NCBI GenBank assembly: GCA_964603445.1
Contig: CAZRUW010000099.1
Location: 1-33,976, forward strand
Length of the DNA: 33,976 bases
Source: an uncultured Gammaproteobacteria bacterium
Lineage (GTDB): Bacteria > Patescibacteriota > Microgenomatia > JAMCZE01
Reading direction: 5' to 3'
Positions 5,737 to 25,531 of the stretch are shown in pieces (the stretch's first letter is position 1; each line of letters begins with the position of its first letter). Made by a program: the position numbers and the translations under genes. The notes beneath the pieces were generated by a model. That model saw nothing but the letters and a program-made list of their open reading frames with translations. It had not been told where the DNA came from and ran no database searches.

Positions 5737-6527
5737 ATTGTATTTGCCACCTTGTTGGCAAGAGTCAGTATCTGGGGGCCGTTTTCGGTCACCGCGACGG
5801 TGTGCTCAAATAATCCGGAGGGCAGCCCGTCCCGGGTAACGATAGTCCAGCCGTCATTATTGTCATAAACTACGGCGGATGCGCCCATGTTGTAAATGAC
5901 TTCGACTGCAAAAACCATCCCTTTCTTAATTTCCGGAGTGTTTTCGATGCGACCCCGGAGGTAACAGGGAATTTCCGGATCCTCATGAAGCTGCCTGCCA
6001 ACCCCATGGCCGACCAGTTGTTTGACACAACTGTATCCTCCACCTTCAATGGTATCCTGAATAGCTTTGGAGATGTTACCAATGTGGTTTCCCGGGACAC
6101 ACTTCTTTATGGCCTCTTTGAGAGCATTCTCTCCAACCTTTAAAAATTTCTCTATTTCTTCATTCTTTCTTCCCTCTTCTCTTTTCTCTTTTATTTGTGT
6201 GGTCCAGCTGGCATCAGTGTGGAAACCCTGGTAGAAAACCCCTAAGTCTACCCCCAAAACATCACCCTCCTGTAATTTATAGTCAGTAGGTATTCCGTGA
6301 ACCACCATATCATTGACGCACATGCAGGAGGCAAAATGATACCCTTGTTCCATTTTAAAGGAGGGTTTAGCCCCGGCGGAGATAATTAAATCCTCGGCGT
6401 ACCTGTCCAGTTCCAGGGTGGTTACGCCAGCAACAGCTTTTTTTAAAACCTGACGAACCACGTCCCCCAGAATTCTTCCTCCAGAATGCATAATTTTAAT
6501 TTCAGTAGGAAATTTTATATTAATCAT
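5733..6527 (-). CDS. map: type I methionine aminopeptidase
   Basis: 264 aa with MetAP metal-ligand blocks (VVHGIP, DLGV, GHGVG, FAVEV, EHTVAVT). Confidence 0.93.
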   Translation of the reverse strand: MINIKFPTEIKIMHSGGRILGDVVRQVLKKAVAGVTTLELDRYAEDLIISAGAKPSFKMEQGYHFASCMCVNDMVVHGIPTDYKLQEGDVLGVDLGVFYQGFHTDASWTTQIKEKREEGRKNEEIEKFLKVGENALKEAIKKCVPGNHIGNISKAIQDTIEGGGYSCVKQLVGHGVGRQLHEDPEIPCYLRGRIENTPEIKKGMVFAVEVIYNMGASAVVYDNNDGWTIVTRDGLPSGLFEHTVAVTENGPQILTLANKVANTI

Positions 6528-21569: not shown

Positions 21570-23660
21570 TTACTTCTTGGTGATAATCTGCTCCTGAATA
21601 TTTTTGGGGACTTCTTCGTAGTGAGAAGGCTCCATATAGTAAGATGCTCGGCCCTGAGACATGGAGCGAAGTTTGGTGGAATAGCCTGAGAGTTCAGCCA
21701 AAGGAACCATGGCTAAAATGATGGTGGCATTGGCGCGATTACTGGTTCCCAGAATTTGAGCCCGTTTGGCGGAAAGGTCGCCAATGACATCACCCATAAA
21801 CTCGTCAGGGGTAGTCACTTCGACCTTCATAATTGGTTCCAAAAGGGTCAATTCTGCCTTTTTGCAGGCATCCTGAAGAGCTATGGAACCGGCAATTTGA
21901 AAGGCGACATCGGAAGAATCAACATCATGATAAGAGCCGTCATAGAAAGTGACTGTGAGATCGGTTAGGGGGAAGCCGGCCAAAATTCCGTTAGCGGCAC
22001 ATTCCTTGGTCCCCTTTTCAACTGAAGGAATAAATTCGGCCGGAACAGCTCCGCCTTTAATAGCGTTAATAAATTCCCAGCCTTCACCCCGGGGCTTGGG
22101 AGAAACTTTGACGAGAGCGTGGCCATATTGTCCCCGGCCGCCGGTTTGACGAATGTATTTGCCTTCTCCGGTGGCATCTTTTTTGATGGTTTCCTTATAG
22201 GCCACCTGGGGAGCACCAACATTGGCATCAACGTTCATTTCCCGTTTCATGCGGTCAACCAAAACCTCAAGGTGAAGCTCCCCCATGCCGGAGATGATGG
22301 TCTGGCCGGTTTCTTTGTTACTTTTGACTCGAAAGGTGGGGTCTTCTTCCATCAGGCGCTGAAGAGCATAGCCCAGTTTCTCCTGGTCGGCTTTGGTCTT
22401 GGGTTCAATGGCCAGAGAAATGACCGGTTCGGCAAAAGATATACCTTCCAGGACGAGAGGATTATTTTGGTCACACAAGGTATCGCCGGTGCGGGTGTCT
22501 TTAAGTCCCACGACGGCCACAATTTCTCCGGCGTAGGCTTCCGGAATCTCCTCCCGCTGGTTGGCGTGCATTAAAAGAAGCCGGCCGATGCGTTCTTGCT
22601 GGCCCCGGGTGGCGTTGTAGACATAGGAGCCGGATTTGATAGTGCCGGAATAGATGCGGACGTAATAGAGCTTTCCGACGTGAGGGTCGAGTTGCACTTT
22701 GAAAGCCAAGCCGGCCAAGGGAGCTTCTTTGTTTGTTCCCCGGGTTTCCTCCTGGTTTATTTTTGGATTAAGGCCGGTGACTGCCGGCCGATCCAGAGGT
22801 GAGGGTAAATAGTCAACAATGGCATCCAAAAGGGGTTGAACCCCTTTATTGCGCAAACTGGTGCCGGTGTAAACCGGAACGAGTTGGTAGGAGATAACAG
22901 CCTGGCGCAGAGCTTTTTGCAGTTCCGCAACTGCCGGTTGAGTACCATTAAGATATTTTTCCAAAAGCCCCTCGTCGGTTTCAGCGATTTGTTCCACCAG
23001 AAGATGGCGGTATTTTTCTACCTCGGTAGCGTCCAGTTCCGGGGGAATTTCTTTTTTAATTTCAAATTTAGCTCCCAGCTCATCACTGCCCCAGACGTAG
23101 GCTTCTTCTTTAATCAGGTCATAAACTCCCCGAAAATTGTTTTCCACGCCAATAGGAAGGACCATAACGGCCGGCTTGACTCCCAGACGCTCTTTGATTG
23201 CTTCCACGGTTTTATAGAAATTGGCGCCAAGTTTATCAATTTTATTGACAAAAATAAGCCTGGGAACTTTGTATTTATCAGCCTGACGCCAGACAGTCTC
23301 GGTTTGTGATTGGACTGTTTCTTCGGCATCGAGGATGGTTACCGCACCGTCCAAAACGCGCAATGAGCGTTCAACCTCGGCGGTAAAGTCCACGTGGCCG
23401 GGGGTATCGATAATATTAATCCGGAAATCACGCCAGAAAGTGGTAGTGGCAGCAGAGACAATGGTAATGCCCCGTTCTCTCTCCTGGGGCATCCAATCCA
23501 TCTGGGTGGTACCTTCATCAATGTCCCCGATTTTGTAAGTTTTGCCAGTATAAAAGAGAATCCGCTCGGTGGTGGTAGTTTTTCCCGCGTCAATATGGGC
23601 AATAATGCCGATGTTGCGGATTTTATCCAAAGGAAGTGACCGGGTTTTTGTGTCAGCCAT
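21570..23660 (-). CDS. fusA: elongation factor G
   Basis: Contains AHIDAGKTTTTERIL and DTPGHVDF. I chose the ATG at 23658-23660 (MADTKTRSLPLDKIRNIGI), giving 696 aa. Confidence 0.96.
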   Translation of the reverse strand: MADTKTRSLPLDKIRNIGIIAHIDAGKTTTTERILFYTGKTYKIGDIDEGTTQMDWMPQERERGITIVSAATTTFWRDFRINIIDTPGHVDFTAEVERSLRVLDGAVTILDAEETVQSQTETVWRQADKYKVPRLIFVNKIDKLGANFYKTVEAIKERLGVKPAVMVLPIGVENNFRGVYDLIKEEAYVWGSDELGAKFEIKKEIPPELDATEVEKYRHLLVEQIAETDEGLLEKYLNGTQPAVAELQKALRQAVISYQLVPVYTGTSLRNKGVQPLLDAIVDYLPSPLDRPAVTGLNPKINQEETRGTNKEAPLAGLAFKVQLDPHVGKLYYVRIYSGTIKSGSYVYNATRGQQERIGRLLLMHANQREEIPEAYAGEIVAVVGLKDTRTGDTLCDQNNPLVLEGISFAEPVISLAIEPKTKADQEKLGYALQRLMEEDPTFRVKSNKETGQTIISGMGELHLEVLVDRMKREMNVDANVGAPQVAYKETIKKDATGEGKYIRQTGGRGQYGHALVKVSPKPRGEGWEFINAIKGGAVPAEFIPSVEKGTKECAANGILAGFPLTDLTVTFYDGSYHDVDSSDVAFQIAGSIALQDACKKAELTLLEPIMKVEVTTPDEFMGDVIGDLSAKRAQILGTSNRANATIILAMVPLAELSGYSTKLRSMSQGRASYYMEPSHYEEVPKNIQEQIITKK

Positions 23661-23666
23661 TTTAAA

Positions 23667-23695
23667 ATGCCGTTTTCCGGCACAAGGCAATTATA
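23667..23695 (-). promoter_or_regulatory. weak candidate: a TATAAT -10 box plus a small hairpin before fusA
   Basis: On the minus strand, TATAAT is at 23690-23695, followed by UGCCG-GAAAA-CGGCA-UUUUAAA-AUG. No good -35 is present (TTCCTC at 17 nt). Confidence 0.3.
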
Positions 23696-23734: not shown

Positions 23735-24139
23735 CTAAGTTAAATCAGTGAATGGGTTATATGCTACTTCCCACAAATAGTCATCGGGGTCAGCAAAGTA
23801 ACCTCCATACCCGCCCCAAAAAACATCTTGGGGTTTTTTAACCATCTTGGCCCCAACAGAAACGGCTTTTTTAATGATTTCGTCCACTTCTTCTTTAGAG
23901 CTAACATTATGAGAAAGGGTAACTCCAGAAAAACCTGAGCCCTCTTTTGAAACGGTGGCGTCTTTAGCCAATCGATCTTTAGGATATAAGCAAAGCCAAG
24001 TTCCCTCCAATTCGAACATGGCGAAGCCGTCACTTTCTTTGTAATTATGAGTTTTAAACTTTAAACCATCTTTATAGAAGCGAAATGATTTATCGAAATT
24101 GGAAACGCCAAGGGTTATTAAACTAATTTTTGGCTTCAC
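23735..24139 (-). CDS. VOC (glyoxalase/bleomycin-resistance/dioxygenase) family protein
   Basis: 134 aa. It starts ISLITLGVSNFDKSFRFYKDGL and ends WGGYGGYFADPDDYLWEVAYNP. The start codon is GTG at 24137-24139, 7 nt after the upstream stop. Confidence 0.8.
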   Translation of the reverse strand: MKPKISLITLGVSNFDKSFRFYKDGLKFKTHNYKESDGFAMFELEGTWLCLYPKDRLAKDATVSKEGSGFSGVTLSHNVSSKEEVDEIIKKAVSVGAKMVKKPQDVFWGGYGGYFADPDDYLWEVAYNPFTDLT

Positions 24140-24146
24140 AACTTGA

Positions 24147-24992
24147 TTATATCTCTTTTAGAAACTTACTGAGGCAAACACCTTGCGATTTTTTGATTTC
24201 CCATTCGTCCAGATGTATTGTTTGGAAACCATGATCAGTCAAAAACTCCTCGCGCTTTTGGTCTTTTTCTTTTGCCCCCGGGATATTGTGCCAATAGGAG
24301 CCGTCGCACTCGATTAGAAGGTTTGTCCCTTTTATCTGAAAATCAGCGTGATATTTGCCAATGTGGACTTCTTGATCGAATGAAATATTTTTATTTGTTA
24401 AGTAGTCACGGACAATTTTCTCAATAGAGGTCTCACCCTTAAACCGGATATAACAGCGTCGCGAACAAAAAGTGCCCTTGCCTTTGTTTGTCTCCCAAGT
24501 TGGAAGTTGAAATTCTTTGTGGCAATTTTTACAAATTTTGGAAACATAGTCCCGTTCAAAATTATCTTTGCACACCTTGCTACAAAAAACTGCTTTAGTG
24601 GCAAAAGCGGGGGCTCTTTCCATTAATTTTTCGCACTGTTTACAAGTCAAGTGGACGTGTTTTTCTTGACGAGATTTTTGGAAGCATTCAAAGCTACAAA
24701 AGAAACCGAAACCTTGTTCAACTAAGTAGGCTTTTACTTCAAATTTCTTGCCGCATCTTTGACAAGTTTTAATCTGCTTTCTTTTTGTAGAAGAATGGTA
24801 ACAATCGCTAGAGCAATAGTTAATTTTGTGTTTTTGAAACGGCCACAAATTAATATTCTTGCCACAACCAAAACAAGTTGTCAAAACGCGACGTTTTTGA
24901 CTCTCCGATTTACATTTTCGCGAGCAAAATTTTCGGTGTCGTTGAATTTGCTCGCTAGTTAGTAAGTTAGAACAAAATTGACATTTTATCAT
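24147..24992 (-). CDS. five tandem Cys4 (TRASH/FCS-like) zinc-ribbon repeats fused to a DUF559/Vsr-like PD-(D/E)XK endonuclease domain
   Basis: There are 5 repeats of C-x2-C-x15-17-(F/Y)C-x3-C. The C-terminus is IVRDYL...YHADFQI...LLIECDGSYWHN...EKDQKREEFLTDHGFQTIHL. I chose the ATG at 24990-24992. Confidence 0.75.
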   Translation of the reverse strand: MIKCQFCSNLLTSEQIQRHRKFCSRKCKSESQKRRVLTTCFGCGKNINLWPFQKHKINYCSSDCYHSSTKRKQIKTCQRCGKKFEVKAYLVEQGFGFFCSFECFQKSRQEKHVHLTCKQCEKLMERAPAFATKAVFCSKVCKDNFERDYVSKICKNCHKEFQLPTWETNKGKGTFCSRRCYIRFKGETSIEKIVRDYLTNKNISFDQEVHIGKYHADFQIKGTNLLIECDGSYWHNIPGAKEKDQKREEFLTDHGFQTIHLDEWEIKKSQGVCLSKFLKEI

Positions 24993-25048
24993 CAAATACC
25001 AGCGTAAATCCGAAAAGAAGACGAATCAAGAAGTAATATACTACAGGT

Positions 25049-25531
25049 CTACCAGCGAAGGTGACTGAAAACTTTATTCGCTTCTGCCATTTTGTGAACC
25101 ATGTCGCGTTTCTTGATGGCGTTACCGGTATTATTTAGAGCATCCTGGATTTCTGCTGCCAGTTTTTCGGCAAAAACATGATATTCCTTATTCGACCTTG
25201 ACCGGGCCGCTTCCAAAAGCCATTTTAAGGCTAAGTGGGTCTTGCGGTCACCACGAACTTCGGAGGGAACCTGATAGGAAGCGCCACCGACCCGCCGGGG
25301 GCGAACTTCCATTTTAGGAGCAATTGTACTGACTGCCTGTTCCAGAACCTTGTCCGGTTCCTGATCCGGGAGTTTAGTTTTTAACAGTTCCAGGGTTTTA
25401 TAGATTTGCCCTGCAGCCACGGATTTTTTTCCGTCCCGCATAGTCTTATTGATCAGCTTAGTCACAAGACGGCTGTTATAGACCGGGTCACCTTGAGTTT
25501 GGCGCTTGATGGCTTGTTTACTTCTGGGCAT
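25049..25531 (-). CDS. rpsG: 30S ribosomal protein S7
   Basis: 160 aa. It follows rpsL, contains ...VRPRRVGGASYQVP and ends ...SHLRW. Confidence 0.95.
   Translation of the reverse strand: MPRSKQAIKRQTQGDPVYNSRLVTKLINKTMRDGKKSVAAGQIYKTLELLKTKLPDQEPDKVLEQAVSTIAPKMEVRPRRVGGASYQVPSEVRGDRKTHLALKWLLEAARSRSNKEYHVFAEKLAAEIQDALNNTGNAIKKRDMVHKMAEANKVFSHLRW

Follow-up and report, generated by a model that had tools for sequence, protein, structure and literature searches.

A probable homing endonuclease gene with an array of FCS-type Cys4 modules at the rpsG|fusA junction

A nuclease gene between rpsG and fusA

What could a protein that joins five Cys4 modules to a nuclease domain be doing between rpsG and fusA? 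The open reading frame (ORF) at positions 24147–24992 of the window (the whole stretch of 33,976 nucleotides of DNA that was analysed) is encoded on the minus strand, begins with an ATG at 24992, has its stop codon within the span, and gives a product of 281 amino acids. The five Cys4 modules are followed by a C-terminal DUF559/MTES_1575 nuclease domain. The gene is located between rpsG and fusA, and its immediate neighbours are rpsG and a VOC-family gene. We consider it quite probable that it is a free-standing homing endonuclease gene, a selfish gene for a site-specific DNA nuclease, which belongs to the EDxHD/Vsr-like class and comes from a phage-borne family. To our knowledge, a single Vsr-like homing endonuclease has been studied biochemically. 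The features of the locus are as follows.

21570..23690, minus strand: fusA (EF-G), the downstream flank
23735..24139, minus strand: glyoxalase/VOC-family gene, 7 nt downstream of the nuclease ORF
24147..24992, minus strand: complete ORF of 281 aa and a stop codon, the only copy in the genome; Vsr-like/EDxHD nuclease domain behind five Cys4 modules
24150..24437, minus strand: nuclease domain, residues 186–281; DUF559/MTES_1575, Vsr-like fold; E191, D217, D230, H235, D244
24438..24539, minus strand: zinc module 5, residues 152–185; C154, C157, C176, C180; FCS
24540..24650, minus strand: zinc module 4, residues 115–151; C117, C120, C137, C141; FCS
24651..24770, minus strand: zinc module 3, residues 75–114; C77, C80, C99, C103; FCS
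24771..24881, minus strand: zinc module 2, residues 38–74; C40, C43, C60, C64; YCS
24882..24992, minus strand: zinc module 1, residues 1–37; C4, C7, C23, C27; FCS
24993..25048, minus strand: spacer from the rpsG stop to the ORF start, 56 nt; aligns with a promoter-like motif common to CPR copies
25049..25531, minus strand: rpsG (S7), the upstream flank, kept in every cellular copy with rpsG in the fetched flank

Structure of the zinc modules

Each module has the pattern C-x2-C-x15-18-C-x3-C, with F or Y before and S after the third cysteine. The gaps between the second and third cysteines of modules 1–5, with the F or Y counted, are 15, 16, 18, 16, and 18 residues. The initial annotation of this DNA, which named no strand, had described five modules with 20 cysteines, which the cysteine positions in the translation bear out; its spacing of x15-17 before the F or Y was one residue too long at the low end, and the rest of its pattern stands. 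Most of the 20 cysteines are invariant and the others are at least 90% conserved in alignments of 22 and 30 homologues, and all four cysteine columns are invariant among 97–101 aligned modules. Because of this conservation across homologues and aligned modules, the cysteine pattern cannot be attributed to chance. The modules are old and position-specific, not freely shuffled.

For the five-module region, AF2 predicts confident Cys4 knuckle-plus-helix folds (pLDDT ~90; 87 for one module modelled alone). The predicted helices begin at residues 25, 62, 101, 139, and 178, directly past each third cysteine. The AlphaFold model thus agrees with the earlier expectation that the repeats fold, but not as the zinc ribbons first named: the predicted topology is treble-clef-like, as in FCS and TRASH modules, rather than that of a classical two-hairpin ribbon. 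Each module presumably holds one zinc. The proposed match to TRASH/FCS modules is retained with respect to the [F/Y]CS signature, which is present in five of the five modules, but not with respect to the TRASH/YHS family models, which gave a YHS fragment as their sole match (11.8 bits against a cut-off of 30.3).

The window modules have the signature C-x2-C...[F/Y]-C-S-x2-C with, in the predicted structure, the last two ligands located where the helix begins, and FCS or YCS occurs in 67% of 389 distinct modules from 171 proteins extracted from the fetched loci. The window protein (P0001) has no match to zf-FCS (PF06467) at E ≤ 1. Homologous modules of proteins P0020, P0028, P0029, P0032, and P0033, which are 35–47% identical to it, score 28.9–32.1 bits against the PF06467 cut-off of 22.4, and the counterpart of module 3 in the 47%-identical P0020 scores above this cut-off. 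Module 1 weakly matches the polyhomeotic FCS finger 2l8e (E 0.2). A Foldseek search of the PDB with the single-module model gave nothing significant, and its top match was the Bcd1 zinc finger (E 4.1). Since that search was empty, the fold class of the modules was assigned from the sequence signature, the Pfam matches in homologues, and the predicted topology.

The modules share the cysteine signature, the knuckle-plus-helix fold, and, as in MYM proteins, the arrangement in tandem arrays with FCS/MYM fingers (PF06467; 2l8e) and the TRASH/eL24 motif; the FCSxxC half-site of eL24 is similar. In contrast, FCS/MYM fingers are eukaryotic, bind protein or RNA, and are not fused to nucleases, and the window protein itself is under the Pfam threshold. 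Polyhomeotic FCS fingers bind RNA, and we know of no record of FCS-type fingers as sequence-specific readers of DNA. As the initial annotation suggested, the array may serve a modular recognition of the target.

In concept, the protein resembles engineered zinc-finger nucleases (C2H2 array plus FokI), in which tandem zinc modules place a weakly specific or non-specific nuclease, and the first knuckle of the module resembles the CxxCGKxF of C2H2 fingers. Unlike C2H2–FokI proteins, it contains Cys4 fingers without a C2H2-type recognition helix, the finger type and the nuclease are both unrelated, and a base code of individual modules would be hypothetical. Comparison of the module profile with PDB sequences gave apparently strong matches to C2H2 arrays. 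These were not accepted as homology, because each match covers only the CxxCGKxF knuckle with an E of ~1 per stretch, summed over many repeats.

Structure of the nuclease domain

The nuclease domain passes the Pfam cut-offs of both MTES_1575 (PF18741; 41.5 against 38.2 bits) and DUF559 (PF04480; 37.5 against 20.6 bits), and the segments YHADF and LLIECDGSYWH were found as quoted in the initial annotation, which had correctly recognised a DUF559/Vsr-like C-terminal domain. The catalytic residues, on whose presence that claim depended, are in place: each of E191, D217, D230, H235, and D244 is either invariant or conserved to at least 90% in the alignments of 22 and 30 homologues.

The AF2 model has a pLDDT of 90.3. 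The top Foldseek match in the PDB is the catalytic domain of I-Bth0305I (3r3p; E 1.7e-4, prob 1.00, TM 0.74 on target), and the next are Vsr (1cw0; 1vsr was also matched) and the DUF559 protein 3hrl. The alignment to 3r3p pairs D217 with D196, D230 with N208, H235 with H213, and D244 with D222, and places E191 in the N-terminal helix. At the sequence level, the resemblance to 3r3p is weak (E 0.2, about 21% identity). The roles of residues D196, N208, H213, and D222 of I-Bth0305I have been described (PMC3239194). The domain also superposes on 3hrl with a TM of 0.78 on target. It resembles the DUF559/MTES_1575 proteins (NGO0050, 3hrl) in this superposition and in its scores above both cut-offs, whereas typical DUF559 proteins are single-domain, bacterial, of unknown function, and without a zinc array or a fixed insertion site.

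I-Bth0305I (PDB 3R3P) is the prototype of EDxHD/Vsr-like homing endonucleases (Taylor et al. 2011, PMC3239194), a family that includes free-standing members such as those of the phage Hef type (PMC3239194). The window protein shares with it the C-terminal Vsr-like fold, the same five motif residues, a separate N-terminal region, and an association with phages. [quoted passage not shown] The N-terminal region of the window protein gave no NUMOD or HTH match in the Pfam search and contains the Cys4 array instead.

Two homologues are named 'very-short-patch-repair endonuclease' by JGI. These names, together with weak matches to Pfam Vsr and TIGR00632, would fit an enzyme of Vsr mismatch repair, as which some homologues are annotated at source. 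The scores are far under the cut-offs (15.4 against 27 bits for PF03852 and 20.3 against 97.85 bits for TIGR00632), the structure is nearer to I-Bth0305I than to Vsr, and Vsr lacks a zinc-module array. A search for a Dcm-type methyltransferase (PF00145), which as a control matched 9 of 14 reference genomes, found none in the genome of the window (G000, 94% complete). With scores below the cut-offs and no Dcm found, a function in Vsr repair was rejected, and we consider it extremely improbable.

Phage relatives

The protein belongs to a large family: a threshold of E ≤ 1e-3 gives 7,306 matching clusters, and E ≤ 1e-10 gives 1,513. Relatives are encoded on 455 viral contigs of IMG/VR, 217 viral structures in BFVD match at E ≤ 1e-3, and the proteins contain two to seven modules each. 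The architecture is neither rare nor specifically bacterial, and the family is abundant and mainly phage-borne. A tblastn search of GenBank phages (E ≤ 1e-8) gave Microcystis phage MaeS as the sole record, in which the gene is 'hypothetical' and its context uninformative. The earlier remark that no characterised bacterial protein was known with this exact arrangement still holds, as no function of a zinc-array member was found in the literature searched; the nearest protein is I-Bth0305I, with the nuclease domain alone in common.

The zinc array matches PHROGs 1271 and 559, which are annotated 'HNH endonuclease', and the homologue P0045 contains the same nuclease together with NUMOD3 motifs. 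These combinations indicate domain shuffling, which is typical of homing endonucleases. Since P0045 joins NUMOD3 to the same nuclease, the arrangement is common with EDxHD members, whereas the module type is not.

The phage copies are located between portal, protease, and capsid genes and adjoin HNH-NUMOD4, GIY-YIG, and HNH-AP2 genes. In phage locus L011, the gene is positioned in a 7-nt spacer past the portal stop. Phage L202, which is 90–91% identical to L011 on both sides, is without exactly those ~950 bp. The two phages are a pair of an insertion and an empty site, which differ by a clean ~950-bp insertion. Free-standing homing endonucleases of phages include seg and mob of T4, the HNH, GIY-YIG, and Endo VII-type classes (PMC3943268), and F-CphI (PMC6083498). 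Like them, the gene is small, is located between adjacent conserved genes, is present or absent among close relatives, and combines modular binding with a nuclease. The Vsr-like nuclease, the FCS-type zinc array, and the chromosomal branch in CPR and Chloroflexi set the window family apart from these phage genes.

'Restriction enzyme' is the label given to relatives in giant viruses and phages. This label, the Pfam domain name 'REase_MTES_1575', and weak domain-level PADLOC matches to PDC-S37 and DpdF could reflect a domesticated nuclease whose zinc array recognises foreign DNA and which the host keeps for a restriction-like or anti-phage function. However, the PADLOC matches do not extend beyond the nuclease core and include one to the model 'HEase homing endonuclease' (weak, E 4.5e-4). 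Given only such matches and no partner genes beside the ORF, assignment to a defence system was rejected. Furthermore, no cytosine methyltransferase was found in the 94% complete genome, most of the relatives are in phages among structural genes, and the distribution is extremely sparse. A defensive function is therefore quite unlikely.

Cellular copies downstream of rpsG

The fetched flank includes rpsG in 18 distinct cellular loci (12 from Patescibacteria/CPR and 6 from Chloroflexota), and in all of them the gene is directly past rpsG. The order is rpsL, rpsG, and the nuclease gene; in loci that extend as far as fusA, 0 to ~5 kb of cargo follows. Other cargo never precedes the gene, which takes the first position past rpsG throughout. 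The bacterial branch is thus bound to one chromosomal site, rpsG|fusA. The rpsG-linked copies form one clade nested among viral sequences, with moderate support (SH-aLRT 82), and the CPR subclade has a support of 98. The CPR and Chloroflexi subclades are reciprocally monophyletic, which is also expected from old vertical descent with many losses.

The distribution is very sparse: of 15 further genomes from the same family, none was found to carry the gene, and 400 genomes sampled from the class yielded one full-length copy. Empty sites, in which rpsG and fusA are adjacent, occur in the same family. No close-range pair of empty and occupied sites was found for the CPR copies; the closest genomes with an empty site share only 65–77% identity in S7. 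A first metagenome search pattern for close relatives of the window organism found no loci, and a looser pattern gave 120 rpsG loci, all of them distant (S7 identity of 60% or less) and all lacking the gene. These metagenome loci, with the gene in 0 of 118 unrelated ones, serve as background only.

In the same family, the rpsG|fusA spacer also holds a large serine recombinase, a PIN toxin pair, a RelE-like pair, DUF3800 proteins, and unknown ORFs, and variable cargo is present between the nuclease gene and fusA at other occupied loci. The spacer is a general accessory-gene hotspot in the family of the window organism. Therefore, recombination between conserved flanks alone could place genes there, and a phage-derived nuclease gene could have entered by homologous recombination as passive cargo, without involvement of its own nuclease. 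Both the unrelated genes in the spacer and the variable cargo next to fusA fit such an entry. However, a hotspot alone leaves it unexplained why only one family recurs there. The constant first position past rpsG, the use of the same site in two phyla, the single clade of the copies, and the precise intergenic insertion in phage relatives also speak against passive entry, which we consider unlikely.

Mobility of the gene

The Chloroflexi loci L046 and L048 have S12+S7 proteins that are 94% identical and flanks with 79–84% nucleotide identity. From the rpsG stop to the fusA start, no DNA similarity between them is detectable, and the nuclease proteins are 43% identical. This sharp loss of DNA similarity, rather than the AU test, is the basis for the argument, and it points to allele replacement between the two loci. 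In AU tests, for which the groups were chosen after the tree had been seen, the S12+S7 data rejected the gene-tree groupings (p 1.8e-9 and 9e-37). The alignment of the gene itself rejected the host topology weakly (p 0.042 and 0.146), and L046 and L048 as sisters were not significantly rejected from the side of the gene (p 0.146). Locus L052 contains a frameshifted copy and L051 a minimal copy of 151 aa.

Traits of a mobile gene were thus found in the fixed site, the presence and absence between relatives (phages L011 and L202), and the allele replacement between L046 and L048. The cassette in the window has 38.0% GC, compared with 46.5% genome-wide (sd 3.2), which places it in the lowest 0.2% of genome windows. 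Its base composition is foreign, and this GC anomaly is indirect evidence for mobility of the window's own copy.

A role in translation was considered as an alternative. Foldseek also gave matches to RAP-domain proteins from the mitoribosome of Toxoplasma (E 9e-4 to 3e-3), and the gene is inside the str operon, where co-transcription with rpsG and fusA would reflect such a role. Combined with the FCSxxC half-site of eL24 and the RNA binding of polyhomeotic FCS fingers, this could indicate a ribosome- or RNA-associated protein, in which the FCS/TRASH-like modules bind RNA and the Vsr-like fold acts like a RAP domain. It is very improbable in view of the near-absence of the gene from the family (0 of 15 other genomes) and the class (one full-length copy in 400), its foreign base composition, and the replacement of alleles between near-identical flanks. 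The location of phage relatives in structural modules and the full conservation of the catalytic residues are likewise at odds with it.

Proposed mechanism of homing

Homing is the reading of the window gene that we prefer, and its steps may be outlined as follows. The five FCS-type Cys4 modules arrayed at the N-terminus would hold the protein on a long DNA target, and the C-terminal Vsr-like domain would cut the DNA via E191, D217, D230, H235, and D244. By analogy with I-Bth0305I, the nuclease probably acts as a dimer. The target would be the uninterrupted rpsG|fusA junction in genomes without the gene. When the break is repaired with an occupied copy as template, the gene, together with any neighbouring cargo, would be written into the short spacer right past the rpsG stop. 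Zinc binding, dimerisation, DNA cleavage, and the identity of the target as described are inferred, and the copy in the window may still be active.

Homing endonucleases of the EDxHD kind are known, and the window family would add to them the FCS-type zinc array and the chromosomal rpsG|fusA branch. If the proposed mechanism is correct, the tandem array of FCS-type Cys4 modules is a DNA-binding solution that has not been described for any nuclease in the literature searched, and the gene is a rare free-standing homing gene of bacterial chromosomes, inside a highly conserved operon and in two phyla. Thousands of calls that read 'DUF559', 'Vsr', or 'HNH endonuclease' in phage and metagenome data would also gain a concrete annotation, and the family may account for the variability of the rpsG|fusA junction in these small genomes.

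We further speculate that each FCS-type module reads a short stretch of DNA and that the rpsG-linked branch is a chromosomal homing element that moves from one to the other of CPR and Chloroflexi and seeds the hotspot. The two parts taken jointly are possible but doubtful. If they apply, the array may be a natural, evolvable 'zinc-module nuclease', and the ~1,500 diverged variants from phages and bacteria, which have two to seven modules, may constitute a ready-made library of long-target specificities. The breaks made by the element may seed the accessory genes at rpsG|fusA, carrying cargo such as the VOC gene. A regular reading of DNA by the modules would make the family of interest to nuclease designers.

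Spacer and downstream genes at the window locus

The promoter-like motif of the CPR copies consists of TTGAC-N17 containing TTTTCGG-TATTAT. In the 56-nt spacer of the window, its -10 part is degenerate, and the motif is clear only in other CPR copies; a consensus promoter scan of the window reported no promoter in this spacer. Downstream of the nuclease gene, the VOC-family gene has an atypically low GC content, like the nuclease ORF, and is not present at other occupied loci. It is therefore probably cargo that resides alongside the nuclease gene. The TTG start listed for fusA is probably too early, and the ATG of MADTKTRS is located near 23660.

Domain architecture and predicted structure

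The gene is likely a free-standing homing endonuclease gene of the EDxHD/Vsr-like class (prototype I-Bth0305I), whose DNA-binding array would be of a new kind and whose chromosomal site is lineage-specific. From the evidence below, we infer DNA cleavage, its target, the zinc content and the present activity of the window copy. The gene is a single ORF on the minus strand, a strand that the initial annotation did not state, within the same-strand order rpoB, rpoC, rpsL, rpsG, nuclease ORF, VOC gene, fusA, tuf and S10 operon. The features discussed here are:

23735–24139, minus strand: glyoxalase/VOC-family gene (134 aa), 7 nt downstream of the nuclease ORF
24147–24992, minus strand: nuclease ORF (281 aa)
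24993–25048, minus strand: spacer from the rpsG stop codon to the nuclease gene, with a promoter-like motif that is degenerate in the window

The 281-residue protein contains twenty cysteines in five units of C-x2-C-x15-18-C-x3-C, with the third cysteine of every unit located within an [F/Y]-C-S triplet. The cysteine pattern described previously was right overall, but its spacing was off by one residue. Across two alignments, with 22 and 30 homologues, the cysteines are mostly invariant and the remainder at least 90% conserved, and the four cysteine columns are all invariant across ~100 aligned single modules. Residues 186–281 pass the Pfam cut-offs of MTES_1575 and DUF559; Vsr models match the protein weakly, below threshold. 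The ORF reading, cysteine conservation and Pfam matches bear out the proposed array of five modules joined to a DUF559/Vsr-like domain, and this overall architecture is real.

The AlphaFold2 model of the whole protein, calculated from a 30-sequence alignment, has a mean pLDDT of 90.3 and a pTM of 0.46, as would be expected of well-folded units that are flexibly strung together. Each module in the model forms a short hairpin at the C-x2-C knuckle, followed by a helix starting directly after the third cysteine. This predicted topology is treble-clef-like, as in FCS/TRASH fingers, and not that of a classical two-hairpin zinc ribbon. Thus, of the suggestion that the repeats are zinc ribbons, the confident folding of the modules (pLDDT ~90) stands, but the ribbon topology does not. 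A single module modelled alone reached a pLDDT of 87 and had no significant neighbour among solved structures. The window protein did not reach the zf-FCS Pfam cut-off of 22.4 bits, which five homologues (35–47% identity) passed with 28.9–32.1 bits, and module 1 aligned weakly to the polyhomeotic FCS finger. In its first half (x-x-C-x-x-C-G-K-x-F) the module mimics a C2H2 knuckle, which inflated summed scores against poly-finger proteins when the module alignment was compared with PDB sequences; in its second half (FCSxxC) it is similar to ribosomal protein eL24.

The best solved-structure match of the whole model is the catalytic domain of I-Bth0305I (PDB 3r3p; E 1.7e-4, TM 0.74). Behind it rank E. 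coli Vsr bound to DNA (1cw0), 3hrl, which is a DUF559 protein, and RAP-domain proteins from a mitoribosome. In the HMMER alignment to 3r3p, D217, D230, H235 and D244 correspond to I-Bth0305I D196, N208, H213 and D222, and E191 is placed in the preceding helix. The four I-Bth0305I residues and an N-terminal glutamate form the EDxHD motif common to Vsr (Taylor et al., PMC3239194), and a survey of PD-(D/E)XK nucleases united VSR/DUF559 and the I-Bth0305I structure in one clade (PMC3424549). E191, D217, D230, H235 and D244 are invariant or nearly so in the 22- and 30-homologue alignments, so the catalytic residues expected in the C-terminal domain are present and conserved in the family. A Vsr-type repair function was rejected: the Vsr models score far under their thresholds, a search of the genome gave no Dcm, and Vsr lacks a zinc array.

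A large family of putative, mainly phage-borne endonucleases

A word-indexed search returned 53 relatives; those that carried a name were labelled 'Protein containing DUF559' (Candidatus Collierbacteria) or 'very-short-patch-repair endonuclease'. An exhaustive search of 1.84 billion representatives gave 7,306 clusters at E<=1e-3, of which 1,513 remained at E<=1e-10 and 36 at E<=1e-30; in many, the match spans both array and nuclease. Relatives are encoded on 455 viral contigs in IMG/VR; the 80 contigs fetched carry two to seven modules per protein, most commonly four or five. The model matched 217 predicted viral structures at E<=1e-3, with labels including 'DUF559', 'DNA mismatch endonuclease', 'Homing endonuclease' (a Staphylococcus phage) and 'Treble clef zinc finger domain-containing protein' (Listeria phage P70). 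The zinc array matches PHROGs annotated 'HNH endonuclease', and one relative has the same nuclease joined to NUMOD3 motifs. Therefore, phage endonucleases exchange binding and cutting parts, as is usual for homing enzymes. The mean best normalised module score is 0.55 against modules of other proteins versus 0.32 against neighbours in the same protein, and 71% of strong best matches occupy the same position counted from the nuclease. By these sequence comparisons, the arrays are old and position-specific, and they change mostly when single modules are gained or lost, not by free shuffling. In agreement with the initial annotation, which knew of no characterised bacterial protein of this exact arrangement, the literature searched yielded no paper on a zinc-array member or on a homing gene at the rpsG–fusA junction.

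Two distant homologues belong to phage contigs, where they lie amid portal, scaffold, protease and capsid genes, with HNH-NUMOD4, GIY-YIG and HNH-AP2 genes around them. One of the two is in L011; this phage and its relative L202 share 90–91% DNA identity on both sides of the gene, and positions 6000–6949 of L011 (the gene and ~80 nt) are missing from L202. The start codon of the gene overlaps the portal stop codon in L011, and 7 nt separate the portal stop from the next ATG in L202. The two phages are a clean occupied/empty pair, and the phage copies behave as free-standing homing genes. A role in defence or restriction is at odds with the lack of partner genes; the PADLOC matches cover the core domain only, and one is to a 'homing endonuclease' model. 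A second difference between the phages (L011:1450-2479 versus L202:674-2799) consists of unrelated DNA with a GIY-YIG-type ORF in L011 and looks like another endonuclease-linked indel.

A fixed but sparsely occupied chromosomal site

Wherever the fetched flank of a cellular locus with the full architecture includes rpsG, the genes run rpsL-rpsG-gene, and fusA, where in reach, lies 0 to ~5 kb beyond the gene. These loci belong to Patescibacteria (the window, L001/L040 from Collierbacteria, L004, L007, L038 (= L013), L039, L041, L042, L043 from Blackburnbacteria, L044, L199 and L200) and Chloroflexota/Anaerolineales (L045-L048, L051, L052). In the tree, the copies linked to rpsG group in a single clade (SH-aLRT 82) that is nested within viral branches, with Patescibacteria (98) and Chloroflexi (88) subclades. 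Five further 'cellular' loci that do not adjoin rpsG fall inside viral clades and are therefore probably prophages or binned phage contigs. The records of L038 and L042 are titled 'uncultured Gammaproteobacteria bacterium', probably wrongly; their S12/S7 and nuclease genes group with Patescibacteria, and L038 is the same locus as L013 from genome G237 of the window's class.

None of 15 further genomes from the window's GTDB family carries the gene, nor does any of 118 unrelated rpsG loci from metagenomes, and one of 400 genomes sampled from the class has a full-length copy. Empty sites exist in the same family, since fusA follows rpsG directly or almost directly in L026, L034 and L029. A ribosome- or RNA-linked role, which the operon position and the RAP-domain matches would favour, is hard to reconcile with a gene that is so sparsely distributed, has relatives in phages, keeps its catalytic residues intact and is foreign in composition.

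The most serious rival to homing is that the gene is passive cargo, placed at the junction by flank recombination alone. In the window's family the spacer is a general hotspot, with a large serine recombinase, PIN/RelE-type toxin pairs and DUF3800 proteins, but the nuclease gene always comes first behind rpsG; this holds in two phyla, whose copies at this site make up one clade. Across L024-L037 from the window's family, the spacer is variable, being empty or nearly so (~230 bp) in four genomes. The remaining genomes have unrelated cargo there: L025 a large serine recombinase, L030 a RelE/YafQ-like toxin pair, L035 a PIN toxin preceded by a small ORF, and L032 and L037 DUF3800 proteins, besides several ORFs without a Pfam match.

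Several Patescibacteria spacers (window, L001, L004, L038, L039, L041-L044) share a promoter-like motif of TTGAC, ~17 nt including TTTTCGG, and TATTAT, located a few bases before the start codon. The unit seems to bring its own expression signal, and the motif suggests a nearly leaderless transcript carried by a mobile unit. The window spacer has a degenerate -10 part, and a consensus promoter scan made no call there.

Signs of movement, decay and foreign origin

The Chloroflexi loci L046 and L048 are 94% identical in S12+S7 and 79–84% in flank DNA. Their DNA similarity ends at the rpsG stop codon and restarts at the fusA start, and the intervening nuclease proteins are only 43% identical, a pattern of allele replacement within nearly identical flanks. 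The host-marker alignment (S12+S7) strongly rejects the gene-tree groupings (AU p 1.8e-9 and 9e-37). In the opposite direction the test is weak (p 0.042 and 0.146), and the tested groups were named after the trees had been seen. Two Chloroflexi copies at the rpsG site are consistent with the decay stage of homing: that at L052:3807-4814 is split over three reading frames and is probably decaying, and that at L051:4025-4480 is a minimal 151-aa version keeping a single full Cys4 module.

The window nuclease and VOC genes have a GC content of 38.0%, compared with 46.5% for the genome (sd 3.2 for windows of equal size). This places the cassette within the lowest 0.2% of the genome, and by composition both genes look recently acquired. 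No VOC gene was found in the other occupied loci; therefore, it is local cargo and not part of the nuclease family's unit. The VOC gene alone has 39% GC, and its only relative in the genome, on contig C78, is 29% identical. As listed, fusA opens at a TTG (23660–23690, minus strand), giving MPCAGKRHFKMADTK... The true start is probably an ATG near 23660, because relatives begin at the methionine of MAD..., and would leave ~74 nt downstream of the VOC gene.
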